The notes beneath the pieces were generated by a model. It saw only the letters and a list, made by a program, of their open reading frames with translations. It did not search any database and was not told where the DNA came from. A stretch of 64,000 bases of DNA from Candidatus Magasanikiibacteriota bacterium (GTDB taxonomy: Bacteria > Patescibacteriota > Patescibacteriia > Magasanikbacterales > GWA2-37-8). The DNA lies in contig JBAYNU010000002.1 of NCBI GenBank assembly GCA_041678665.1, forward strand, positions 5,039 through 69,038. Reading direction: 5' to 3'. Position numbers and translations under genes: made by a program. This document shows, in pieces, positions 4,877-60,752 of this stretch. Position 1 is the stretch's first letter. Every line of letters begins with the position of its first letter.

Positions 4877-5227
4877 ATGAGACATCAAATGAAGAAAGTT
4901 ACTCTGGATCGTAAAGCTGCGCCGCGTCGAGCTCTTCTTTGTGGTCTGGTGTCCAGTTTGGTTTTATACGAAAAAATTACTACTACCAAAGCTAAAGCTA
5001 AAGCGATTAAACCGCTTATAGAAAAAGCAATTACCAAGGCTAAGAAAAATGATCTTGCGAATCGCCGTGCTTTATTGGCTCAACTGCATGCTAAAAATGT
5101 AGTTAGTAAACTCATAGAGGTTTTGGGGCCACGTTATACCACTCGTCAGGGTGGTTATACCCGCATTGTTAATTTGGGTAATCGCAAAGGCGATGGCGCG
5201 CAAGAGGTGGTAATAGAATTTGTTTAA
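4877..5227 (+). CDS. rplQ: 50S ribosomal protein L17
   Basis: L17 family signature; follows rpoA as in the alpha operon. Confidence 0.9.
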   Translation: MRHQMKKVTLDRKAAPRRALLCGLVSSLVLYEKITTTKAKAKAIKPLIEKAITKAKKNDLANRRALLAQLHAKNVVSKLIEVLGPRYTTRQGGYTRIVNLGNRKGDGAQEVVIEFV

Positions 5228-20405: not shown

Positions 20406-21980
20406 TTATGATATTAATTTTTTAATAGCTATTTTGATTCTGTTTATAGTTTCGTCTTTTTTCAGAACTTCAGCAATTTCAAATGGCCCCGGTGATTTAT
20501 CTTGTCCAGACAGGGCAACTCGCAGAGGCCATAAAATCTCTCCGTTATTATAATTATTTTCTTTAATCCACTCCCCTATTTTAATTTCTAAATCACTCTT
20601 ATTCCAAGATTGAACACTAAAAGTATTCAGCAACTCTTCTAGGCCCGGTAAAACTTTTGTCACAGTCTCCATATTACTCTTTTTCCATACCAAAAGCGAG
20701 CTGTCATATTCTGGTAATTCAAACACAAATGCTAATGCTTTCGGCAGCTCCGCGAGTGTCGCGACTCTTTCACGCTCCAATGGTAACGCCTTTGTTAGTT
20801 GTTCATTATTAATTGTTAATTTACTGGTTTTAAAAAAAGGTACCACTCTTTCCACTAAATTTTCTAACGGCAGGCGTTTAATATACTCTTTATTAAACCA
20901 ATCCAATTTTTCCAAATTAAATACCGCTCCGGATTTATTTACTTTGGCAAAATCAAATTCTTTAATCAAATCCTCTAAAGTAAAAAGCTCGCGATTGTCT
21001 CCCGGATTCCAACCTAAAAATGCTACAAAATTTATAACTGCTTCCGGCAAATAACCTTTTTTAATATAATCCTCCACCGCCACATCACCCTGGCGCTTGC
21101 TTAACTTGGATTTGTCGAAATTCAAAAGCAGGGGCAAGTGAGCGAATTCGGGCGGCTGCCAGCCGAAATATTTATAAAGCTGTAAATGTTTGGGAGTGCT
21201 GGAAATCCACTCTTCGCCACGACTGGCGACGGTAATCCCCATTAGATGATCGTCCACTACTACGGCCAAATGGTAAGTGGGAAAGCCATCGGATTTAATA
21301 ATTACCTGATCATCAACCAGCTCATTTTTTATTCTGATTTCCCCACGAATTAGATCATTAAAAACCGTTTCGCCGAATTTTGGCATTTTCATGCGAATAA
21401 CATGCTTTTCGCCGCCCGCGATACGTTTTTTGGCTTCCTGAGGATCAATGCCGGCGCATAAACCATCGTATCCGGTTGGTATTTTATTTTTCTGCTGCTT
21501 TTCTCGTAATTCCATTAAACGCTCCGATGAACAAAAACAATAATAAGCGTGACCTCTATCTAATAATTCCTGGGCATATTTTTGATAAATTTCCAAACGT
21601 TCAGACTGTATATATGGTCCACGTTTACCCACCTGCGCCACACAATTGTCATTCTGAGGCGCAGCTGAAGAATCCTTTTGGCTTTCAGGTGACAAGAGAT
21701 CCTTCCCTGAAGGGGTCCCTTTGGGATGCCCGCTCAGGATGACATTATCAGCGCTCTTTTTTAAAACTACGCCCTCATCTGGAACCAGGCCGGCCCAAAC
21801 TAAGGAATTTAAAATATTTTTTACGCCATCCTCGACAAATCGCTCGCGGTCGGTATCCTCGATACGCAACAAAAACTGTCCGCCGTGTTTCTTGGCGTAA
21901 AGATAGGCATACAAAGCCGTGCGCAAACCGCCAATATGCAAATAACCGGTGGGACTAGGAGCAAAACGAGTTCTAATCAT
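20406..21980 (-). CDS. gltX: glutamyl-tRNA synthetase carrying an in-frame insertion of about 33 aa derived from a palindromic repeat
   Basis: HIGG and KMSK class I motifs; 524 aa; insertion ...SPESQKDSSAAPQNDNCVAQVG... is encoded by repeat 21646..21745. Confidence 0.9.
   Translation of the reverse strand: MIRTRFAPSPTGYLHIGGLRTALYAYLYAKKHGGQFLLRIEDTDRERFVEDGVKNILNSLVWAGLVPDEGVVLKKSADNVILSGHPKGTPSGKDLLSPESQKDSSAAPQNDNCVAQVGKRGPYIQSERLEIYQKYAQELLDRGHAYYCFCSSERLMELREKQQKNKIPTGYDGLCAGIDPQEAKKRIAGGEKHVIRMKMPKFGETVFNDLIRGEIRIKNELVDDQVIIKSDGFPTYHLAVVVDDHLMGITVASRGEEWISSTPKHLQLYKYFGWQPPEFAHLPLLLNFDKSKLSKRQGDVAVEDYIKKGYLPEAVINFVAFLGWNPGDNRELFTLEDLIKEFDFAKVNKSGAVFNLEKLDWFNKEYIKRLPLENLVERVVPFFKTSKLTINNEQLTKALPLERERVATLAELPKALAFVFELPEYDSSLLVWKKSNMETVTKVLPGLEELLNTFSVQSWNKSDLEIKIGEWIKENNYNNGEILWPLRVALSGQDKSPGPFEIAEVLKKDETINRIKIAIKKLIS
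21646..21745. repeat. palindromic dispersed repeat, family A copy (TGTCATTCTGAGG...CTCAGGATGACA), in-frame inside gltX
   Basis: terminal inverted repeats plus internal GAAGAATCC core shared with copies at 44400, 45579, 47714, 55814, 57744. Confidence 0.7.
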
Positions 21981-43567: not shown

Positions 43568-46500
43568 CTAAGCCCTAAATTCGCAAATATCCCTAAAATC
43601 ACATCGTCCACAAATAAATTGACTGGGGGTGGCGGCAAAATCACGAGCGTGAATACGCTGGATAGTTTCAAGCATTTTTTCTTGCACTGCGACAATTTCT
43701 TTTTCAGAACCAAAAAATGATATCTGGGAATTTTGGTTGAGATAATAAAAAGTTAATTTACTAACAACACCAATATGATAATATTCTGGAAGCGTTTTTA
43801 CAGCCAACTGGTAAATTAATAGCTGATTTTTGTCGTCGCTCGATAATTTTTCTTTACCTTTGCCGGTTTTGTAATCCACGATATGCAATGAGCCATCGGG
43901 TAATTGATCAATACGATCAATGCGACCGCTTACCGTGAACCCGCCAATTTTTATACGAAATGACCCTTCAAGTGTAACCGGAACTGTCCAGCCATTTTTT
44001 TCATTTTCTTCATAAAATTTTTTGAGCACTTCTTTGCCTTCGGTATAATAAGTGTCACGCTGACCCTTGCTTTCGTACCAATCATCAATCCAGTGTTGAT
44101 CGTAAATTTCCAACAATTCTTTAATTTCGGGTATTTTTAGGTTACCGGATTTTTTTAAGATCGTAATCGAACTGAACAATGAATCTTGGGTGGCGCTATT
44201 TAAAACGCGCGCGCGTTCATAAAATGCCTGTAAGGTTCCATGCATGCTTTGGCCAAAACTGAAATTAGCATTACCTTTGGTGGGTATGCCGACAACATTG
44301 GCCAGCTTGTATTGATACGGACAGGTAGAATATGAATTAAGCTGTGAATAAGAAAATCGTTCGGGGAGATGATAAATTGAATCAGAACGAACTTGATCAT
44401 TGTCATTCTGAGCGGAGCGAAGCGAAGTCGAAGAATCCTTTAAACTTTGCAATCGAAGGGATTCCTCCGCTCGCCCTGCGGGCTCGGTCGGAATGACAAA
44501 TTCACTTACTCCTTTTTCCTTGCTCCTTAATCCTTTCGCCTCGTATCCGAGCTCGCTCAAAAACCGACTGTTTTTTTTCTGTCGACTGCCACCATAATCA
44601 TCAGCACTGGTTAGATATAACTTTTCCTTAGCGCGGGTCATCGCCACATAAAACAACCTTCGTTCTTCTTCGATATGCTCGTCGCCTTCCGGTAATTGCT
44701 CTTTGATTAATTCAAAAGGAATTTCAATCGCTTCGGATCTCGCGCGCGATGGAAAACGTTCTTCCACCAAATTTACTACAAACACGTATTTAAATTCCAA
44801 ACCCTTGGAGCCATGAATAGTTAAAATATTCACCGAGTCAGGGGTATCCACCATTTGATGTAATGATCCCTTGTCGCCTGAATCCACAATGTAATTAAAA
44901 TGTTCCAAAAATCCAGATACGGTCGCGCCGGCTTCGGCGGTTTCATAAGCCGAAATATATTCCAAAAATTGCTTAAGCTGGTGAATTTGTCGAATGGCGC
45001 CGCGATTACCTGCTTCTTCTTGTTTTATTAAATAACTAAAATATCCACTTTCTTCCAACCACTCCACCAAAAGCGTGGTTGGTTTGCTATTACCAACCTT
45101 GGTTTGTCCAGTTTTAATCCAAGAAGTAATTTTTTGAGCAAGTTCAAATCCAGCAACGGATAAATATAATTCCGAAGCGCGCCTAAGCGACTCGAAATAG
45201 GAAACAGATTTCTTTTTGGCAAAAGAAGTTATTTTTTGGATATCCTCGGCTGGAAATTGTAAAAACGACAAATTTAACAAACGGAATATCGCGGTTGATT
45301 CGTGGTGATTATCTAATAATTTAAGAAAGTTGATACAGTCCAAAACAATGGGCTGACGATAAAGCCCGGCTGAAGCGATAAATTCGTATGGTATCCCCTG
45401 TTTTTCCAAAGCATTAATAAACGGATCGGCATGCGCGTTGGCTCTCACCAAAATGGCAAAATCATCCCAGGTCGCGCTTTCGTTGATGGTTCTGAGCCGC
45501 GCGATTTCGTCAACCACGCTTTTTACTTCTTCATCCAGTGTGGTAGAGTGAATGTGACAGACGCTCGCCGTTCGCGCGTTGTCATTCTGAGGCGTAGTCG
45601 AAGAATCCCTTCTACTTCGAACGTTAAAGGATCCTTCGCTTCGCTCAGGATGACAATTTGCGGTGAGTCGCTTATTTATTTTGAGCTTCACCTCCAACCG
45701 ATCCGGATTATTATTCTGAATAGATTTATATGCCAAATCCAAAATTTCCTGGCAAGAACGATAATTTTCATTAAGAACAATTTCTTTGGCCTGCGAATAG
45801 TCTTCTTTAAACCGTAAAATATTATTCACGCTGGCACCGCGAAAAGCATAGATTGACTGGTCATCGTCGCCAACGACGGTAAGCTGGTTTTCTTCGCCTG
45901 CAATCATTTGTACCAACTGGTATTGCGCCCAGTTCACATCCTGAAATTCATCCACCAAAATATATTTATAACGCTCGCGTAATAATTTCAAAATATTCGG
46001 TCGTTCACGCAATAATTTTATGGTGTAAAAAATCAAATCGCCAAAATCAAGCGCGCTGTTATCAAGAAGTAATTGATTATACGCGTGATAGGCGTTGGCG
46101 ATTTCGGAAAGGCGTTTAAAATCGACGGCGGCATTACTGTCATTCCCGTGAAAACGGGAATCCGCGACTTCTGGGGCAGATCCCCGCTTTCGCCTGCCTG
46201 CCGGCAGGCATGGCGGGGATGACAATGTAGAATCGCTGTCCAACTTCATCCCTTCCGCATACTCCAAATATTCTTGCGGTGTAATAAGTTCATCTTTACA
46301 TTTAGAAAAATGTTTTAAGAGTTCGTGAATATGCTTGGCTGGGTTTCCCAAAGGTCGATAATAATCCAAATCAAATTTATCTAAATTGCGCCGCACCAAA
46401 AGCCAAGCGTCGGTTTCGGTAAGTAATTTAAATTGATTAGGTAGACCAATGTCCAATCCATGATTTTCCAAAATCCGCTGGCAAAAAGCATGGAAGGTGG

Positions 46501-46756
46501 AAATTTGCATATCCACATATCCGAGCTCAAGCATTTCATCCACGCGCGTTTGCATTTCTCCGGCTGCCTTTTCCGTAAAAGTCAACGCCAAAATTTGCTC
46601 GGGAGTAGCGAGTTTATTTTCTATTAAATGTGTAATTTTTTGCGTAATTACCGTGGTCTTACCGGTACCGGCGCCCGCCACAATCAAAAGCGGGCCGGAG
46701 GCATATTCCACGGCCTGTTTTTGCGCGGGGTTGAGAGGGTATTTTGGCATAATCAT
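43568..46756 (-). CDS. UvrD/PcrA-family SF1 DNA helicase fused to C-terminal Cas4/RecB-type PD-(D/E)xK nuclease domain with Cys4 cluster; carries three in-frame repeat-derived insertions
   Basis: GAGTGKT Walker A; C-terminal GRIDRID, VDYKTGK, QLLIYQLA nuclease motifs and STCPY...CGRCDFRDIC cysteines; 1062 aa. Confidence 0.85.
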   Translation of the reverse strand: MIMPKYPLNPAQKQAVEYASGPLLIVAGAGTGKTTVITQKITHLIENKLATPEQILALTFTEKAAGEMQTRVDEMLELGYVDMQISTFHAFCQRILENHGLDIGLPNQFKLLTETDAWLLVRRNLDKFDLDYYRPLGNPAKHIHELLKHFSKCKDELITPQEYLEYAEGMKLDSDSTLSSPPCLPAGRRKRGSAPEVADSRFHGNDSNAAVDFKRLSEIANAYHAYNQLLLDNSALDFGDLIFYTIKLLRERPNILKLLRERYKYILVDEFQDVNWAQYQLVQMIAGEENQLTVVGDDDQSIYAFRGASVNNILRFKEDYSQAKEIVLNENYRSCQEILDLAYKSIQNNNPDRLEVKLKINKRLTANCHPERSEGSFNVRSRRDSSTTPQNDNARTASVCHIHSTTLDEEVKSVVDEIARLRTINESATWDDFAILVRANAHADPFINALEKQGIPYEFIASAGLYRQPIVLDCINFLKLLDNHHESTAIFRLLNLSFLQFPAEDIQKITSFAKKKSVSYFESLRRASELYLSVAGFELAQKITSWIKTGQTKVGNSKPTTLLVEWLEESGYFSYLIKQEEAGNRGAIRQIHQLKQFLEYISAYETAEAGATVSGFLEHFNYIVDSGDKGSLHQMVDTPDSVNILTIHGSKGLEFKYVFVVNLVEERFPSRARSEAIEIPFELIKEQLPEGDEHIEEERRLFYVAMTRAKEKLYLTSADDYGGSRQKKNSRFLSELGYEAKGLRSKEKGVSEFVIPTEPAGRAEESLRLQSLKDSSTSLRSAQNDNDQVRSDSIYHLPERFSYSQLNSYSTCPYQYKLANVVGIPTKGNANFSFGQSMHGTLQAFYERARVLNSATQDSLFSSITILKKSGNLKIPEIKELLEIYDQHWIDDWYESKGQRDTYYTEGKEVLKKFYEENEKNGWTVPVTLEGSFRIKIGGFTVSGRIDRIDQLPDGSLHIVDYKTGKGKEKLSSDDKNQLLIYQLAVKTLPEYYHIGVVSKLTFYYLNQNSQISFFGSEKEIVAVQEKMLETIQRIHARDFAATPSQFICGRCDFRDICEFRA
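44400..44499. repeat. family A palindromic repeat copy, in-frame inside the helicase gene
   Basis: TTGTCATTCTGAGCG...GAAGAATCC...CGGAATGACAA. Confidence 0.7.
45579..45656. repeat. family A palindromic repeat copy, in-frame inside the helicase gene
   Basis: TTGTCATTCTGAGGCG...GAAGAATCC...GGATCCTTC...CGCTCAGGATGACAA. Confidence 0.75.
46138..46225. repeat. family A variant copy (TGTCATTCCCG...CGGGGATGACA, internal GCCTGCCGGCAGGC palindrome), in-frame inside the helicase gene
   Basis: terminal IRs; related fragments at 36410-36480, 31320-31345, 46763-46790. Confidence 0.65.
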
Positions 46757-46892: not shown

Positions 46893-47183
46893 ATGAAACA
46901 CAACGAAAGAGTCATCAATGCCGTGGTAATAGGGGCATTGATACTGGTATTCCTCCTGTGGTGGGGGCTAGCCAATGACTACGCGTCTTTTAAAAAGATG
47001 TGCGCGTTGTCAGAAGAAGCAGCTTGTCGTGAGGCAGGTTATGCTCCGCCCATCGTATGGAGCATGAATGAGAAAGCGCTCTTTTGCCATGACGACAAAG
47101 GGCTAAAACACCAAATAAAGATTCCAGCCTGCAACTGCAAGTTGGACCCTGGAGCGAAAGAATGCCGCTTCTTGAAAAAGTAA
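46893..47183 (+). CDS. hypothetical small secreted or membrane-anchored Cys-containing protein
   Basis: 96 aa, N-terminal hydrophobic helix, 6 Cys; strong AAGGAG SD; elevated GC. Confidence 0.5.
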   Translation: MKHNERVINAVVIGALILVFLLWWGLANDYASFKKMCALSEEAACREAGYAPPIVWSMNEKALFCHDDKGLKHQIKIPACNCKLDPGAKECRFLKK

Positions 47184-47186
47184 AAC

Positions 47187-47227
47187 AGACCGTGCAATCA
47201 GGGAGGATTGCACGGTCTCTATTTTTA
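47187..47227 (+). terminator. intrinsic terminator (copy 1 of a duplicated 52-nt segment)
   Basis: AGACCGTGCAATC-agggag-GATTGCACGGTCT 13-bp perfect stem followed by TATTTTTAT. Confidence 0.8.
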
Positions 47228-47303
47228 TATGATGGATCCTTTGTTTTACAATTTCTGACAATCAATATATAATATACTAAGCTCAAAATCATAGGAGGAA
47301 ATC

Positions 47304-47636
47304 ATGAAAAAATATAAATGGGCAGTAGTATATTTATTTTTGGTCTTGCTCTTTTGGCAACTCGGCAATTTATTAAATGCCCACACCGAAAAGCTCAAAG
47401 CAGGTTTCATACTTTCGCAAGAAGCTTTATCGCTCTATTGCTATCATCGCTTCGGCGATGAAAGTGAAAAAGTAATGATAACAATAGGCGACACACAGCT
47501 GGAAAAAAAAGATTATACGATGTGTTTTGTCCCGCGAGAAGGGGCTCTCTACTTTATTGTGAGCCTAAATCAATGTACGAACACGCAGGACTATGACGAC
47601 TGCATGTTCCTCACCGGGGCGGCGGAAGAATTTTGA
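47304..47636 (+). CDS. hypothetical small secreted or membrane-anchored Cys-containing protein
   Basis: 110 aa, N-terminal hydrophobic helix, 4 Cys; AGGAGG SD. Confidence 0.5.
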   Translation: MKKYKWAVVYLFLVLLFWQLGNLLNAHTEKLKAGFILSQEALSLYCYHRFGDESEKVMITIGDTQLEKKDYTMCFVPREGALYFIVSLNQCTNTQDYDDCMFLTGAAEEF

Positions 47637-47650
47637 GCATAGCTTCAAAC

Positions 47651-47692
47651 AGACCGTGCAATCAGGGAGGATTGCACGGTCTCTATTTTTTA
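47651..47692 (+). terminator. intrinsic terminator (copy 2, identical to 47187..47227)
   Basis: same 13-bp stem followed by T-run. Confidence 0.8.
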
Positions 47693-47713
47693 TATGATGG
47701 GTCATCTTCTCAA

Positions 47714-47796
47714 TTGTCATTCTGAGGAAGTGAAACGACCGAAGAATCCCTTAAATCACAAAGTCAAAGAGATCCTTCGCTTCGCTCAGGATGACA
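47714..47796. repeat. family A palindromic repeat copy (intergenic)
   Basis: TTGTCATTCTGAGG...GAAGAATCC...GATCCTTCGCTTCGCTCAGGATGACAG. Confidence 0.7.
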
Positions 47797-47948
47797 GACG
47801 GAGATGTCTCATATTATTTCGAAGTGGCATTTGTCATTCACTCCTAAAAGCTATCAGCTACAAGCTGTAAGCTACTGGATAAGGGCTTCGCCACATATAA
47901 ACATCGCTCGCTCAAAAATAAAAATAAATTTTTATTTTACTCACTCGC

Positions 47949-49733
47949 TTAGTTTATGAACCCGCCCGCCTGAATACTCCAAAGCTTCTTGTAAACACCA
48001 GAAGTTTTTTTGACCAAATCCGCGTGCGTCCCCTCTTCAATAATTCCGCCTTCGCCAATCACAATAATTCGATCCATTTTCATGATAGTAGATAAACGGT
48101 GCGCCACGGTAATCACAGTTTTGTTTTTCATTAGATTGACAAGCGCATCTTGAATCAGATGTTCGGATTCAGAGTCCAAACTGGAAGTGGCTTCGTCCAT
48201 AATAAGAATCGGCGCGCCCCGTAAAATCGCGCGCGCAATCGCCACGCGCTGACGCTCACCGCCGGAAAGTTTTACTCCCCGCTCTCCCACAAAAGTATTA
48301 TATCCTTCGGAAAATTCGGATATAAACTCGTGACAATGCGCGAGCCGCGCGGCTACAAATACTTCTTCGTCGGTCGCGTCAAATTTTCCGTAACGAATAT
48401 TTTCCATTAAACTGCGATGAAATAAAATTGGATCCTGGGGCACATAGCTTACTGCCGCCCACAAACTTTCCAGTTTAACATCGGTGATATCATTCCCATC
48501 AATCAAAATCCGACCGCTGTCAATATCATACAAGCGCAACAATAATCTGGTAATGGTGGTCTTGCCGGCTCCCGACGGCCCCACAAACGCTACCTTTTCA
48601 CGCGAACTAATAGTCAAAGAAAAATCATTCAACACGCGCCGAGTTTCATTATAGCTAAAACAAACCTTATCAAAAACCACTTTCCCGTCTGTCGCTTGTA
48701 AATTTTTCGCTCGCGACTTATCCGCCACACCGTGCGGGGTTTTGAGAATTTCGGTCATCTCTTCGGCGTCGGCCATTTCTTGAAAAATATGGCGCATCAC
48801 CTTGCCGAAATCCCAAATCTTCATAAAAACGATAATCACATAGGATTGCAGTAATACAAAATCGCCAATTGTAAATTGTCCGGCTTGCCATAATTTTAAT
48901 CCATAGTAAAAAGCCACAAATTCCAAAATAAAAATCAAAAAACCCTGAACCGCTTCCACAGTATTATTGATATTCCAAGAGAACTTGCGCAAACGACGTA
49001 ATTTATCCAGCGCTACATCAAATAGACTGGTTTCTTTATTATAACCACCAAATAATTTTACATTGGTTTGGTTGGTAATGGTGTCTGCCAAAATAGCGGT
49101 AGTGGCCGACTCGGCTTCACTGCGTCTGATATCATAGGGCATCTTGAACTTAATCAATAGCCAATTGACGGTAAAAAATAAAGCTAACCACGCCAACATA
49201 ATATAACCCAAAAGATGACTCTTAAAAAATAACACCGCGATGACGACTGACAAGTTTATTACCAAAGGCAAAAGATTATATACCAGTCGATCCGCCAAAC
49301 CTTCAAACGCGCGTGTAAACCAATTAACCCGTTTTACCAAAGAACCCACAAAACTGCTGTTAAAAAAAGCGTAGGAATGCAAATGAAGATACCTAAAACA
49401 GGTATTGGCCAAATCCTTGAGCATCCAACTCTCCAAACTTACCAAAGTAAAAGTTTGGATGCGCCAAAACGCCCAATGTGTGAAATTGAGCGCTAAAATA
49501 ATAAGCAAAACAAACAATAAGGCATCAATAGAATTATTTTGACCAATTGATAAAATATCAAAGAATTTCTTGTAATACAGTGGAATAATCACATCAAATA
49601 CCGAAGCAAAAATTGTAGACAAAAATACCACTATCCCAAGCCAAGGATAGCGTTTTAGATGCTGCCAGTAAATTTTCATTGTCAATTTAGTATTATTTTG
49701 CATAAAATTTAGGAAAACACGACAAATCCGCAA
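47949..49733 (-). CDS. ABC transporter, fused permease/ATPase exporter (MsbA-like)
   Basis: 6 TM N-terminal domain; Walker A GPSGAGKTT, LSGGERQRVAIARA signature, Walker B ILIMDEATS. Confidence 0.9.
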   Translation of the reverse strand: MRICRVFLNFMQNNTKLTMKIYWQHLKRYPWLGIVVFLSTIFASVFDVIIPLYYKKFFDILSIGQNNSIDALLFVLLIILALNFTHWAFWRIQTFTLVSLESWMLKDLANTCFRYLHLHSYAFFNSSFVGSLVKRVNWFTRAFEGLADRLVYNLLPLVINLSVVIAVLFFKSHLLGYIMLAWLALFFTVNWLLIKFKMPYDIRRSEAESATTAILADTITNQTNVKLFGGYNKETSLFDVALDKLRRLRKFSWNINNTVEAVQGFLIFILEFVAFYYGLKLWQAGQFTIGDFVLLQSYVIIVFMKIWDFGKVMRHIFQEMADAEEMTEILKTPHGVADKSRAKNLQATDGKVVFDKVCFSYNETRRVLNDFSLTISSREKVAFVGPSGAGKTTITRLLLRLYDIDSGRILIDGNDITDVKLESLWAAVSYVPQDPILFHRSLMENIRYGKFDATDEEVFVAARLAHCHEFISEFSEGYNTFVGERGVKLSGGERQRVAIARAILRGAPILIMDEATSSLDSESEHLIQDALVNLMKNKTVITVAHRLSTIMKMDRIIVIGEGGIIEEGTHADLVKKTSGVYKKLWSIQAGGFIN

Positions 49734-49761
49734 AGGCGGATCGTTATATAATTATATAATC

Positions 49762-49986
49762 TCATTCGCTCAGAAATGTCTTTGTAAACAAAGCCACTTC
49801 TTCGCTCACTGCTATTATAGATGACGCGATAAACAAAAAAATGTTACAGTGGTAACATAAAAATTTGGACGCTAATCCATTCTCAAGACAAAGTTTATTA
49901 TTTTTCGCTGCAACCGCACCCGCAGCCATTGCCGCACTTGCAACAATGATAGCACACCGACTCTTGACAAGCGCAGCGGTCATCAT
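49762..49986 (-). CDS. ORF of 74 aa (Ala-rich N-terminus, hydrophobic C-terminus). Frame is ambiguous with the Cys-rich 42-aa ORF at 49898..50026.
   Basis: listed in ORF track; its third-codon-position composition fits the genome better than the alternative frame does. Confidence 0.2.
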   Translation of the reverse strand: MMTAALVKSRCAIIVASAAMAAGAVAAKNNKLCLENGLASKFLCYHCNIFLFIASSIIAVSEEVALFTKTFLSE

Positions 49987-50026
49987 CTTTTTCCAGAGGC
50001 ATGTTGCATTCTACGCATTTTTCCAT
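49898..50026 (-). CDS. alternative-frame 42-aa Cys-rich peptide MEKCVECNMPLEKDDDRCACQESVCYHCCKCGNGCGCGCSEK (11 Cys)
   Basis: hand translation of minus strand; overlaps the 74-aa ORF in another frame; no clear SD. Confidence 0.25.
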   Translation of the reverse strand: MEKCVECNMPLEKDDDRCACQESVCYHCCKCGNGCGCGCSEK

Positions 50027-50169
50027 ACAAAGAAGGAATAAAGAATAAGGATTAAGGAATAAACGAACACAAAATATATTTACTCCTTAATTTTTATTCC
50101 TTACTCATTATTATACCACAACCAAAAAACCCGGCAATACAACCGGGCTTTCGTGTCAAGTAGGGTAAA

Positions 50170-50604
50170 TTATTGGCTCTTGGGGAGACGCTTGTACTTC
50201 TTTCCAACATTAATGCGGTTCATTTCGCGATCAATCACGGCTTGTAAACGGGCATAATCCACATCTTGAACATTTTTGATTTTTTCCATTTGTTCCTGTG
50301 CTCTTTTATGGGCTTCCTGCGCCCTCGCGACATCAATTTCTTCTACCCGTTCAGCATTATCGGCCAAAATAACAATTTCGTTATTACCGCGCACTTCCAA
50401 AAATCCACCGGCCACGGCAATTGGATGATCCCCCGCTTTATCCACAATACGCATCTCCCCGGCTTTGAGAACGGAAACAAGCGGAATATGATTGGGCATA
50501 ACCGTAATTTCACCGTCCATGGTGGGGATGGTTACTTGCGTTACTTCGGTATTTTCGTAAACCACCTTTTCGGGGGTCGCTATCTTAAATCTTAGATTTG
50601 ACAT
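50170..50604 (-). CDS. atpC: F1 ATP synthase epsilon subunit
   Basis: beta-sandwich plus C-terminal helices; last gene of the atp operon. Confidence 0.85.
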   Translation of the reverse strand: MSNLRFKIATPEKVVYENTEVTQVTIPTMDGEITVMPNHIPLVSVLKAGEMRIVDKAGDHPIAVAGGFLEVRGNNEIVILADNAERVEEIDVARAQEAHKRAQEQMEKIKNVQDVDYARLQAVIDREMNRINVGKKYKRLPKSQ

Positions 50605-52065: not shown

Positions 52066-52434
52066 TTAAGAGTTGGTTTTAAGATAATTAATAATATGAT
52101 CTAAAAATAATTTTCCTTTCTCGATATCATCATCTGTAGTCCGATCTGGATCGCGCTTAGGCATCGCTTGGACAAACTCGATAAAATTTTCACACTCACT
52201 TCGTATTTCTGTGCTAAGTGTTTGGTCCCTTCTTAATAGACTTACTATTTCTGACGCAATACTCGAAAACCAAGCACCACGACATCTATAATTATAATAA
52301 TTAGGATGGTCTGGTTTTAAAATCTCCGACGGTATATCATCTGTCCACTTTCTGTCATCCCGTAACTCTAGGATATTCTCCAAAACTTGTTTTCTGATTA
52401 ATTCGACCGGGTATCCTTGGGTTTCTGTGCTCAT
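52066..52434 (-). CDS. hypothetical protein inserted between atpG and atpD
   Basis: 122 aa, acidic, no recognisable family; not a canonical atp operon member. Confidence 0.5.
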   Translation of the reverse strand: MSTETQGYPVELIRKQVLENILELRDDRKWTDDIPSEILKPDHPNYYNYRCRGAWFSSIASEIVSLLRRDQTLSTEIRSECENFIEFVQAMPKRDPDRTTDDDIEKGKLFLDHIINYLKTNS

Positions 52435-52439
52435 AAACG

Positions 52440-53399
52440 TTATTCCAACGCCGCCGATCCACCGGCGATTTCCGCAATTTCTTGCGTGATGCCGGCCTGG
52501 CGGGCTTTGTTAAAATTCAAATTTAATTCTTTGATCATATCGGTGGCCGCTTCAGACGCGTTTTTCATGGCCATCATGCGGGCGCTGTGTTCGCTGGCGG
52601 ACGATTCCAAAAGCGCTTGAAAAATTTGCGTTTCTACCAAACGCGGTAAAATAATTTTTAAAACCTCGGTACGATTTGGTTCAAATAAATATTCGCCTAG
52701 TTCGATTTTTGGTTCGCTTACTCCTTGTTCCTTATTCTTTATTCCTTCATTATCCCCGATCATCTTTTCCAAATCCACTTCCGACACCGGCAAAACCTGT
52801 CTTAACTTAGCCACCTGCGCGATGGCCGATTTAAAATCGGTGTAAGCCACTACCACCTTGTCGTATTTGCCGGATTCGTAATCCGCAATTATTGTACGCG
52901 CAGCCGGCAAAATATCTTTGAGCCCGGGAGTATCTGGCAGTCCGGTATAAGACGCGGTTAAATTGTATTTCATTTTTTTGGCAAATTCGGCGCCTTTTTT
53001 TCCAATTCCCAAAACATCCACCTCAATATTATCGGACGGCTCTACTACTTTTCCGGCCACGCGCTGGCGACTAATATTTTTGGGATCCTGGAGTTGCGCC
53101 GCCGTCTTGCGAATGATATTGGCATTGAAACTGCCGCACAGCCCGCGATTGCTGGTAATCAAGATCACTAATAATTTTTTCACCGGCCTAATATCCATAA
53201 GAGCAATGCCTTCGCGCTCGCCTTTGGAAAGATTTACCAAAAGATCCCAGGCCATTTTGGCATAGGTGCGCGTGTTTTGCGCCGCTTCCACCGCTTTTCT
53301 CATCTTGACGGCGGACATCATTTCCATGGCTTTGGTAATCTTTTTGGTATTACCCACGGATTTGATGCGACGTTTGATTGCTTTGGTATTTACGGCCAT
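52440..53399 (-). CDS. atpG: F1 ATP synthase gamma subunit (contains a family-B repeat-derived segment)
   Basis: N-terminal IKRRIKSVGNTKKITKAMEMMSAVKMRKA; start taken at MAVNTK (ORF track extends to 53408 with a non-ATG start). Confidence 0.9.
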   Translation of the reverse strand: MAVNTKAIKRRIKSVGNTKKITKAMEMMSAVKMRKAVEAAQNTRTYAKMAWDLLVNLSKGEREGIALMDIRPVKKLLVILITSNRGLCGSFNANIIRKTAAQLQDPKNISRQRVAGKVVEPSDNIEVDVLGIGKKGAEFAKKMKYNLTASYTGLPDTPGLKDILPAARTIIADYESGKYDKVVVAYTDFKSAIAQVAKLRQVLPVSEVDLEKMIGDNEGIKNKEQGVSEPKIELGEYLFEPNRTEVLKIILPRLVETQIFQALLESSASEHSARMMAMKNASEAATDMIKELNLNFNKARQAGITQEIAEIAGGSAALE

Positions 53400-53425: not shown

Positions 53426-53797
53426 TTACGATACACTTTCTATTTTTTCTTCTAATTTATCTATTGTCACCCAAATCATTTTTCCTATTTCATTAGACAT
53501 TTCCAAACCGACATTATATTCATCTTTACTAATCCAGTTCTGAATAAACGCGAAATATATTATATACTTACATTCTTGCGACGAACCATGTGATATCTCA
53601 TAAAAATTTAACTTAACTTTGTCTCGCCTACGCGCGTATCCCTCAACATAATTCAACATTATAGACATTGATGCTCGGCGCAACTGCGAACTAACGCCAT
53701 ACAATTCATTACTTGGAAAATTTTTCACTATCTGATAACAGTATAAAACGAATCTATTAATTTTATTTTTCAACAATACATGAAATTTTCCCTCCAT
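53426..53797 (-). CDS. four-helix-bundle protein (23S rRNA intervening-sequence protein family) inserted between atpA and atpG
   Basis: LRRASMSIMLNYVEGYARR...HGSSQECKYIIYFA core matches the TIGR02436-type four-helix-bundle family; flanked by inverted repeats. Confidence 0.75.
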   Translation of the reverse strand: MEGKFHVLLKNKINRFVLYCYQIVKNFPSNELYGVSSQLRRASMSIMLNYVEGYARRRDKVKLNFYEISHGSSQECKYIIYFAFIQNWISKDEYNVGLEMSNEIGKMIWVTIDKLEEKIESVS

Positions 53798-55813: not shown

Positions 55814-55915
55814 TTGTCATCCTGAGTGAGCGAAGCGAATCGAAGAATCTGTGATTATTCGCCGATAAATTCTTCGACTTCATTCACCTTTGGCTCATTT
55901 CGCTCAGAATGACAA
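55814..55915. repeat. family A palindromic repeat copy, atpF-atpH intercistronic
   Basis: TTGTCATCCTGAGTGAGCGAAGCGAATCGAAGAATC...GAATTCTTCGAC...CGCTCAGAATGACAA. Confidence 0.7.
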
Positions 55916-57736: not shown

Positions 57737-57743
57737 AATTGGT

Positions 57744-57801
57744 TTGTCATCCTGAGTGAAACGAAGGATCTAGATTCTTCGACTACGCCTCAGAATGACA
57801 A
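57744..57801. repeat. family A palindromic repeat copy (short form), exactly fills the atpZ-atpB intercistronic gap
   Basis: TTGTCATCCTGAGTGAAACGAAGGATCTAGATTCTTCGACTACGCCTCAGAATGACAA. Confidence 0.7.
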
Positions 57802-57802
57802 T

Positions 57803-58090
57803 TTAATTTAATTTATTATACTGATCCCCGTAGCGCTTGGCCTTTTTTTGTATAATGCGCACAGTAGCGGCAAAGGCTAAAACCAAACAAATTATTAAAA
57901 AAAGAGGATATTTATCAAATTTATTATCTAACCAATTTCCTAATAATACCCCCAACACCGCCGGTACAGCAATAGCTATCCCAAAATCCCCTACGATCCG
58001 CATTGCGAACATATAATAAGCTCGATCGCTGGTTTTTCTTTGCTCGCCAGAGCCTTGACGAAGGCGAGTTTTGTCCGATTCTTCATTCAT
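57803..58090 (-). CDS. AtpZ/AtpI-like small membrane protein preceding the atp operon
   Basis: 95 aa, two TM helices, position upstream of atpB. Confidence 0.55.
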   Translation of the reverse strand: MNEESDKTRLRQGSGEQRKTSDRAYYMFAMRIVGDFGIAIAVPAVLGVLLGNWLDNKFDKYPLFLIICLVLAFAATVRIIQKKAKRYGDQYNKLN

Positions 58091-60701: not shown

Positions 60702-60752
60702 ATGTTAAGGATTAAGGAATAAAGAGTAAGGAATAAATTATTTAGTCCACTA

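Follow-up and report, generated by a model that had tools for sequence, protein, structure and literature searches.

On the minus strand of the 64,000-nucleotide window analysed here, which comprises positions 5,039 to 69,038 of contig JBAYNU010000002.1 (assembly GCA_041678665.1, Candidatus Magasanikiibacteriota bacterium), a short gene at 50026..49898 encodes a miniprotein of 42 amino acids with 11 cysteines. It lies between atpC, the last gene of the ATP synthase (atp) operon, and the gene of an ABC exporter. The reading frame is coding and under purifying selection, its product belongs to a family from lineages of the candidate phyla radiation (CPR) with a conserved cysteine scaffold, and it lacks the features of a precursor of a ribosomally synthesized and post-translationally modified peptide (RiPP). 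The explanation that we favor, with a probability of roughly 0.55 for the whole of it, is that of a cytoplasmic metal-thiolate cluster miniprotein which works like a metallothionein or a metal chaperone.

Identification of the coding frame

Translation of the minus strand from 50026 to 49898 yields MEKCVECNMPLEKDDDRCACQESVCYHCCKCGNGCGCGCSEK, in which 11 of the 42 residues (26%) are cysteine, exactly as given in the first-pass annotation. The open reading frame (ORF) ends with two consecutive in-frame TAA codons, the first of which is included in the coding sequence annotated here (49898..50026, on the basis of ORF translation, orthologs and substitution pattern). An identical protein is deposited at NCBI as hypothetical protein WCX97_01050 of a Ca. 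Magasanikbacteria metagenome-assembled genome (93.7-kb contig); an exact-sequence look-up did not find the window peptide in the gene-position index.

The same DNA also contains a 74-amino-acid, Ala-rich and hydrophobic ORF in the +1 frame relative to the Cys-rich frame (49986..49762, minus strand). The first-pass annotation had described both, had noted that codon statistics favor the longer one and had called the choice between them genuinely ambiguous. The remark on codon statistics was borne out: relative to 15 reference genes from the window, codon log-likelihoods of +8.4 bits for the 74-amino-acid frame and -8.4 bits for the Cys-rich frame were obtained. They disfavor the latter because Cys codons account for only 0.6% of the codons of ordinary window genes. 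The ambiguity is, however, confined to such composition statistics, and the comparison of the two frames in relatives gave a clear result in favor of the Cys-rich one.

Two orthologous loci with the same gene order, L001/L005 (83% identity, 43 amino acids) and L003 (88% identity), retain the short ORF and all 11 cysteines. The window and L001 differ at 5, 3 and 15 sites in codon positions 1, 2 and 3 of the Cys-rich frame, corresponding to 13 synonymous and 7 non-synonymous codon changes. According to Nei-Gojobori counting, the synonymous sites of this frame are saturated (17 of 20.5 differ between the window and L003), while the non-synonymous divergence (dN) is 0.05 in this pair and 0.05-0.10 across the three orthologous loci. 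For the +1 and +2 frames of these loci, the ratio of non-synonymous to synonymous divergence (dN/dS) ranged from 0.98 to 1.48, and for the 74-amino-acid frame itself from 1.05 to 1.48.

The possibility that the 74-amino-acid ORF is the real gene and the Cys-rich frame accidental was rejected on the basis of this substitution pattern and the family-wide conservation of the cysteines, and we assign it hardly any probability. Besides the codon usage, the corresponding frame of L001, which stays open for 57 codons, speaks for it. However, L003 has no equivalent start in the +1 frame and a different C-terminus, no homolog or family match of the 74-amino-acid ORF was found in the Pfam and NCBIfam scans, in which neither frame matched anything, and it is the Cys-rich frame that has around 40 homologs with a conserved Cys scaffold. 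The longer frame stays open only because TGC/GGC-rich codons read as Ala or Val in the +1 frame; the 74-amino-acid ORF is a shadow ORF, an artefact of the coding frame with its TGC/GGC-rich codons. Since the comparative evidence overrules composition, the Cys-rich frame was chosen, and that it is a real gene is close to certain. The missing Shine-Dalgarno sequence is not an argument against its translation because this genome barely uses such sequences: even a loose AGGA/GGAG/GAGG/AAGG motif was present at only 5 of 43 gene starts in the window, and most starts are preceded by AT-rich tracts. For annotation the case is instructive, as codon statistics preferred the wrong, longer ORF and comparative data alone recovered the true 42-codon gene.

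A CPR protein family with a conserved cysteine scaffold

By its sequence, the peptide is a member of a family of about 40 proteins of 42-77 amino acids from CPR lineages. All of them are labelled 'hypothetical protein', none carries a Pfam domain, and the only named source organisms are Magasanikbacteria, Pacebacteria/Paceibacterota and Daviesbacteria, which all belong to the CPR. A metagenome scan with a two-sequence alignment gave 14 loci. When 1.84 billion representative proteins were searched exhaustively with HMMER, 13 true relatives were obtained along with one compositional false positive, an animal SRCR/CUB/ZP protein (P0008) that was rejected as a relative. Two profile searches of a 5.8-billion-protein collection returned 23-25 clusters at 90% identity, and a scan of the GTDB representatives returned the already known ortholog contig alone.

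The invariance of the cysteines was counted in 24 and in 40 sequences (family alignments A3, A4 and A6). Among the 24 sequences, which are approximately 50% identical, exactly 11 cysteines are invariant (C4, C7, C18, C20, C25, C28, C29, C31, C35, C37 and C39) and Pro10 is nearly so. Ten cysteines are invariant among the 40 sequences, C25 being displaced by one residue in a single member, and the distances between the cysteines hardly vary. The resulting family signature, C-x(1,2)-C-x(8,14)-C-x-C-x(3,6)-C-x(1,2)-CC-x-C-x3-C-x-C-x-C, was found once in the window and once per locus in all 31 fetched loci, a recurrence in independent loci that places the pattern far beyond chance. The non-Cys positions are strongly divergent, with even the MP and YH positions changing in L017 and L023, a behavior that we liken to that of metallothioneins. 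An aromatic residue (Y/F26) is present in most members, whose only His (H27) gives way to N, Q, S, R, F or Y in a number of sequences. A Paceibacteria subfamily of 56-61 amino acids (L004, L008, L010, L012 and L031) has a conserved charged C-terminal tail (..KKSEEKAEF) that is predicted to be helical. No Pfam or NCBIfam model exists for the family, and a literature search on the motif, on CPR cysteine-rich small proteins and on new bacterial metallothionein families retrieved nothing on it; it appears to be undescribed so far.

Predicted fold and proposed metal binding

The AlphaFold2 model of the window protein, calculated with the family alignment, has a mean predicted local distance difference test score (pLDDT) of 82.6, with values of 86-89 in the first 30 residues and 64-72 in the CxCxC tail. 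For a 60-amino-acid member, a core of pLDDT 77-86 with the same four beta-bridges and an extra C-terminal helix was predicted. The structural neighbors of the model, all non-significant, are without exception multi-zinc modules (RING, FYVE-like, PHD, LIM, AN1 and ZZ), and the best match among the PDB sequences is the RING domain of Hakai (E=0.27). The protein is smaller than 10 kDa, its Cys content of 26% compares with the 15-30% or more of the operational definition of metallothioneins, and it contains CxxC, CxC, CC and CxCxC motifs, the first three of which this definition names. With these properties and with conservation limited to the cysteines, it qualifies as metallothionein-like in the operational sense. 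As read from the sequence, it has no N-terminal hydrophobic segment, an acidic net charge and an odd number of cysteines. The lack of a signal peptide, the acidic hydrophilic N-terminus and the odd Cys count suggest that it binds metal in the cytoplasm and is not secreted as a disulfide peptide.

We propose that the 11 conserved cysteines encoded by this genuine and independently transcribed gene would fold around a metal-ion cluster, most likely of several ZnII ions, with CuI or CdII as further possibilities. The N-terminal C-x2-C ... C-x-C ... C-x2-C part is predicted to form zinc-knuckle-like turns, and the C-terminal CC-x-C-x3-C-x-C-x-C run would contribute additional, probably bridging, thiolates. 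In mammalian metallothionein, the alpha domain uses eleven thiolates to bind four divalent ions (M4Cys11), and by analogy the miniprotein may also hold four. It would probably serve to buffer, store or pass on thiophilic metals, a task in which the adjacent Atm1-type exporter may take part in the Magasanikbacteria-like clade. Taken by itself, metal binding of some kind is quite probable.

Several findings weigh against this proposal. The Pfam family Metallothio_5 was matched only at E values of about 1 and in 3 of the 24 members, the hhalign comparisons with SmtA and human MT2 gave probabilities of 2% over 9 residues and 5% over 8 residues, respectively, and no metallothionein chain, SmtA included, was retrieved in the PDB sequence search at E<=10. 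Y/F26, H27 and the near-invariant Pro10 would be more expected of a structural zinc module that has a specific partner than of a pure metal buffer. No metal-sensing regulator of the SmtB/ArsR, Zur or CsoR type was seen adjoining any member, and the family-wide gene context is heterogeneous and consists mostly of housekeeping genes. The adjacency to atpC could indicate another role, the exporter retains its glutathione pocket only in part, and there is a terminator between the peptide gene and the exporter gene. In addition, the Pfam model of the BmtA/SmtA family (PF02069) found no match at E<=10 in the window protein or in any of the 24 members, and the aromatic residue at position 26 departs from classical metallothioneins, which have few or no aromatics. 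The miniprotein is thus placed, by sequence comparison, outside every described metallothionein or zinc-finger family. The resemblance to metallothioneins noted in the first-pass annotation is retained as the best available reading, although no known metallothionein family matches.

We also considered that the peptide, instead of binding Zn or Cu, is an Fe-S or otherwise redox-active miniprotein that carries clusters or buffers the thiol redox state. Eleven cysteines in anaerobic CPR hosts, a rubrerythrin gene adjoining one member and a weak Fer4 match in 1 of the 24 members (E=0.93) would agree with such a role, as would the link of the Atm1/ABCB7 relatives of the exporter to Fe-S maturation (PMC9000953, PMC9329353). 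However, the Fer4 match is not significant, and neither the ferredoxin-type spacing CxxCxxCxxxCP nor any other Fe-S ligand spacing is present in the peptide sequence. Moreover, the CC, CxC and CxCxC spacings are those usually seen in metal-thiolate clusters and set the cysteines too close together to ligate a cubane, and we regard an Fe-S or redox function as improbable.

Transcription signals of the peptide gene

A putative promoter of the peptide gene was predicted at 50110..50137 on the minus strand, with the -35 element TTGCCG (50137-50132), a spacer of 16 nucleotides and the TG-extended -10 element TATAAT (50115-50110), amounting to 10 of 12 matches in the consensus scan. The TGTGGTAT(A/T)AT block is kept in the window, L003 and L001 while its flanks diverge, and L021 and L029 have an element that resembles it. 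The -35 element overlaps the intrinsic terminator with which the atp operon ends after atpC (50123..50152, minus strand). In this terminator a T-run comes after a CCCGG/CCGGG stem, and the fold energy is -16.1 kcal/mol with a z-score of -4.7; hairpins are found at the equivalent position after atpC in L003 and L001.

A conserved hairpin, ATGTTAC-N3-4-GTAACAT (49858-49841), follows 3' of the peptide ORF and leads into a T-run (49835..49858, minus strand). Its stem is identical in the window, L003 and L001, its loop length varies, and its fold energy is -4.7 to -6.1 kcal/mol. It is probably a weak and leaky terminator that ends the peptide transcript, and the peptide gene looks monocistronic, possibly with some read-through. 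The palindrome resembles the gammaproteobacterial Zur box, but a function as a Fur/Zur-type operator was rejected as the primary reading: its spacer varies between 3 and 4 nucleotides among the orthologs, no second copy of the motif was found in the window or at the loci, and other members of the clade have an unrelated GC-rich terminator, a hairpin with a T-run, in its place.

The succession of 11 Cys codons, a conserved hairpin with T-run and a thiol-related exporter could also be read as a Cys-codon-rich leader peptide that controls the ABC exporter by attenuation. Leader peptides keep no foldable domain, whereas a fold is predicted with confidence here, and both the sequence and the exact Cys spacing are conserved at loci that have no exporter at all. 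Furthermore, about 40 nucleotides separate the hairpin from the end of the ORF, and the fold showed no alternative antiterminator pairing, so that we consider attenuation highly unlikely.

Upstream of the exporter, a GCGTC(A/T)TCTA motif lies over a -10-like TATAAT (49814..49827, minus strand). The arrangement T-run-N0-3-[GA]CGTC[TA]TCTA with a short TCTAY-N-RTAGA palindrome is kept in the window, L001, L003, L021 and L026, where the flanks have otherwise diverged, and probably represents the exporter's own promoter or operator. Searches of Rfam, with the whole window at the gathering threshold and with 49650-50200 in E-value mode, found nothing meaningful.

Genomic context and the ATP synthase operon

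The upstream neighbor of the peptide gene, atpC (50170..50604, minus strand), encodes the epsilon subunit of the F1Fo ATP synthase. The ATP-synt_DE_N domain is annotated on the syntenic atpC of L001, L017, L020, L021, L023, L026 and L029. Nine lineages that form one clade share a gene order which runs from the atp operon to the peptide gene, then usually to the ABC exporter, and on to an AddA-like helicase. In this clade the peptide gene is always located directly 3' of atpC on the same strand, and is followed by the ABC exporter, the helicase, or a 114-amino-acid ORF and RlmN. The proteins of the clade are 82-97% (atpD), 45-93% (atpC) and 49-76% (ABC exporter) identical to those of the window.

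This position would suit a zinc-cluster protein that acts as an accessory to, or a regulator of, the F1Fo ATP synthase, is encoded by the last gene of the atp operon and is comparable in concept to the small ATP-synthase inhibitor proteins. It is kept in all nine lineages whatever gene comes next, the gap to atpC is only 8 nucleotides in L026, 15 in L017 and 17 in L023, implying co-transcription, and the peptide diverges about as fast as atpC (45-88% versus 45-93% identity). On the other hand, at least 15 other lineages of the family have no atp genes nearby, and in the window, L003, L001, L021 and L029 the peptide gene is separated from atpC by a terminator and by a promoter of its own. As the whole block of atp, peptide, ABC exporter, helicase and MreB genes is syntenic in the clade, the adjacency may simply have been inherited. 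A role as an ATP synthase partner is in our view possible but unlikely.

The neighboring genes in the window encode ATP synthase subunits, the ABC exporter, an AddA-like helicase-nuclease, MreB, MreC, PBP2, TatD, PGA_cap, CvpA and MetRS, among others, and those at the other loci YceG, MgtA, RadC, UppS, MgsA, rubrerythrin, RlmN, a PD-(D/E)XK nuclease, an M23 peptidase and an integrase. In the Paceibacteria subfamily of 56-61 amino acids, an MgtA-type magnesium P-type ATPase (TIGR01524, 864 bits) is encoded one variable gene downstream in four of the first six loci and in L031, and in L006 an MgtA-type ATPase gene is located 3.6 kb from the peptide gene. A functional link to MgtA was set aside, as the intervening gene differs each time and the arrangement is probably lineage synteny. 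There is no single functional partner family-wide.

The neighboring ABC exporter

The first-pass annotation had placed an MsbA-like ABC exporter next downstream on the same strand. The exporter is present, but both its start and its affiliation had to be revised. It is a half-transporter of 584 amino acids (47949..49703, minus strand; Pfam ABC_membrane and ABC_tran), for which the ATG at 49703, where the alignments of the orthologs begin, is a likelier start than the TTG at 49733 of the mechanically called ORF; a hairpin (49742-49725) is located just 5' of this ATG. With the full exporter as query, the best single-stretch PDB matches were ABCB6, NaAtm1 and ABCB7. The membrane domain alone matched, at E<=1e-5, NaAtm1 ('ATM1-type heavy metal exporter', 61 bits, E=1.6e-15), ABCB6, ABCB7, 7pr1 (a chain named 'putative iron-sulfur protein'), yeast Atm1, ATM3 and, weakly, ABCB9, whereas MsbA, Sav1866 and P-glycoprotein were not among the matches at this threshold. 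The NCBIfam scores of the exporter are far below every equivalog cutoff.

In NaAtm1, the glutathione-pocket residues T199, R206, R210, N269, Q272, L315, G319 and R323 are conserved across the Atm1 family together with a kink proline in transmembrane helix 6 (TM6) (PMC9000953). The equivalents in the window exporter are V179, K187, D191, E250, Q253, I296, G300 and R304, with K295 replacing the proline. Three pocket positions (those of Q272, G319 and R323) are hence identical, two are conservative and three are changed; unlike NaAtm1, the exporter lacks the equivalents of T199, R210 and N269. Like the Atm1, ABCB6, ABCB7 and HMT-1 exporters, it is a half-transporter with the architecture of type IV exporters, and its membrane domain is significantly similar to that clade only. 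By these comparisons it is Atm1-like in ancestry with an altered pocket, and the relabelling from MsbA-like to Atm1-like changes the annotation of the gene in these genomes.

Atm1-clade members handle metal-thiol peptide complexes: NaAtm1 has been implicated in heavy-metal detoxification through metallated glutathione (PMC7430982) and ABCB6 binds CdII with glutathione or phytochelatin (PMC11143254). By analogy, the Atm1-type neighbor offers circumstantial support for a metal-related role of the miniprotein in this clade. A more specific possibility is that the exporter takes the peptide, in its free or metal-loaded form, as physiological cargo or as a donor of thiol ligands, the peptide being a ribosomally made stand-in for glutathione or phytochelatin. 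In glutathione-poor CPR bacteria, it might bind thiophilic metals or transport a sulfur or Fe-S species, and either pass these on to the Atm1-type transporter or itself be exported by it. The exporter gene follows directly 3' of the peptide gene in seven of the nine lineages of the clade, the membrane domain finds Atm1-clade proteins and, apart from these, only the oligopeptide transporter ABCB9, and the intergenic hairpin is weak (-5 kcal/mol), which would permit read-through. However, the association is limited to this one clade, in which L017 has the peptide but no exporter and L020 another gene in its place. In addition, the exporter has a conserved upstream motif of its own, it retains only some of the glutathione-pocket residues and lacks the TM6 kink proline, and a folded metal cluster protein of 4.5 kDa is large for an Atm1-type cavity. 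We therefore hold both the cargo role and the replacement of glutathione to be doubtful. If true, the peptide and the Atm1-type exporter would form a two-gene metal-handling module of an undescribed kind.

The first-pass annotation had also offered a RiPP precursor as an alternative, and a small Cys-rich product with a GCGCGC tail, encoded beside an ABC exporter, would indeed agree with a bacteriocin-like peptide which this exporter secretes after modification. However, no YcaO, LanM, radical-SAM/SPASM or MNIO gene was found within about 14 kb on either side, and RlmN is the sole radical-SAM neighbor at any locus. The exporter has no C39 peptidase domain, and most family members have no exporter nearby. 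Conserved cysteines begin at residue 4 and hence leave no room for a leader, the N-terminal extension is variable or absent, no GG cleavage motif is present, and the fold is predicted with confidence. A RiPP precursor is very improbable, and together with the attenuation leader and the 74-amino-acid ORF it is essentially excluded.

Repeat elements and other features of the window

The 5' untranslated region (UTR) of the peptide gene contains an AT-rich palindromic repeat of 83 nucleotides (50030..50112, no strand assigned), a copy pair of a dispersed repeat designated family B. The palindrome that the first-pass annotation had reported here is real: its arms (50030-50063 and 50079-50112) are 79-90% complementary and form a long hairpin in the mRNA fold. 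Since it is missing from the orthologous 5' UTRs of L003 and L001, it appears to be a recent lineage-specific insertion that is not part of the conserved design of the gene, and a functional role of the palindrome in the peptide gene is not supported by this comparison.

Other family-B copies (AAGGAATAAAGAATAAGGATTAAGGAATAAA) are present at 52705-52751, 44495-44535 and 60707-60747. One copy lies in frame inside atpG and encodes ..NEGIKNKEQGVSEPK.. in a loop that is hypervariable among the orthologs; the atpG of L003 carries a different repeat-like IETGNLKLETGA at the same place. Another is located inside the AddA-like helicase ORF between the UvrD_C and PD-(D/E)XK domains, and a third immediately 5' of the cvpA start. 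Those copies that lie in frame are reminiscent of the Rickettsia palindromic elements. A second repeat family, TTGTCATYCTGAG...GAAGRATC, gives peptides of the 'RFAQDD' type on translation. Its copies are found at 21644-21685, 44400-44448, 45579-45656, 47740-47799, 55883-55915 and 57742-57803, several of them within the intact 1062-amino-acid helicase ORF (43568-46756) and others in intergenic regions. By eye, a fragment-like stretch of the exporter leader at about 49760-49810 resembles the family-A 'TGTCATTCTGAGCG' repeat; it does not align with the orthologous leaders.

Two extra genes interrupt the ATP synthase operon of the window, namely a 122-amino-acid ORF without a family match between atpD and atpG (52066-52434) and a gene for a 123-amino-acid four-helix-bundle protein of the 23S_rRNA_IVP family (PF05635) between atpG and atpA (53426-53797). 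The region 46893-47900 contains two plus-strand ORFs of 96 and 110 amino acids with N-terminal hydrophobic segments and no Pfam match, each followed by a 44-nucleotide hairpin terminator (47183-47226 and 47647-47690, 100% identical). This block is absent from L003, where the helicase gene is located directly 3' of the ABC exporter gene, and looks like a recent insertion or duplication.

Comparison with known systems

To our knowledge, only a few families of metallothionein-type proteins (BmtA/SmtA, MymT and some more) have been recognized in bacteria, none of which has been described for the CPR, and we are aware of almost nothing on the metal and thiol homeostasis of these tiny-genome bacteria. 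The CPR-restricted miniprotein with its 11 cysteines is a concrete and cheaply testable candidate, as its 42 residues can be synthesized directly.

In bacterial metallothioneins, which are well folded, a metal cluster occurs alongside a zinc-finger fold, and three to four ZnII ions are bound (PMC10612145). Like the members of the BmtA/SmtA family (PF02069; SmtA, PflQ2MT and TvMT), the CPR protein is very small, Cys-rich and bacterial, and like the SmtA type its model predicts a folded protein in which zinc-knuckle-like turns precede a Cys-dense tail. In contrast to SmtA, whose 9 Cys and 2 His ligands form a Zn4Cys9His2 cluster on a GATA-like zinc-finger fold, it has 11 Cys and at most one semi-conserved His (H27); the Cys spacing is different, a sequence relationship is undetectable, and no SmtB- or Zur-type regulator gene is located beside the CPR gene.

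With the alpha domain of vertebrate metallothionein (M4Cys11) and the fungal Cu-metallothioneins, the protein shares eleven cysteines in about 35 residues and the CxC, CC and CxxC motifs. As in metallothioneins, only the cysteines are strictly conserved, and the C-terminal CKCGNGCGCGC run locally resembles metallothionein motifs. However, there is no homology to the vertebrate and fungal proteins, and the CPR family, which is found in bacteria only, keeps an aromatic residue, a His, a Pro and a predicted defined fold.

Among binuclear and trinuclear zinc modules, the N-terminal C-x2-C ... C-x-C ... C-x2-C pattern is shared with the cross-brace modules of the RING, PHD, FYVE, LIM and AN1 types, its only neighbors, and weak ones, in structure and sequence, and the nine-Cys run C-x-C-x4-C-x2-CC-x-C-x3-C-x-C-x-C recalls the Zn3Cys9 CXC/pre-SET motifs. 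The archaeal C(P)XCG zinc-finger micro-proteins and the cyanobacterial AtpTheta are free-standing proteins of 40-60 residues in which zinc knuckles define the fold or which act on a large complex. The CPR protein may be likened to them in its size and in its position after atpC, a resemblance of general features and not of aligned sequences, but with 11 cysteines it has far more than the 4-8 of these proteins.

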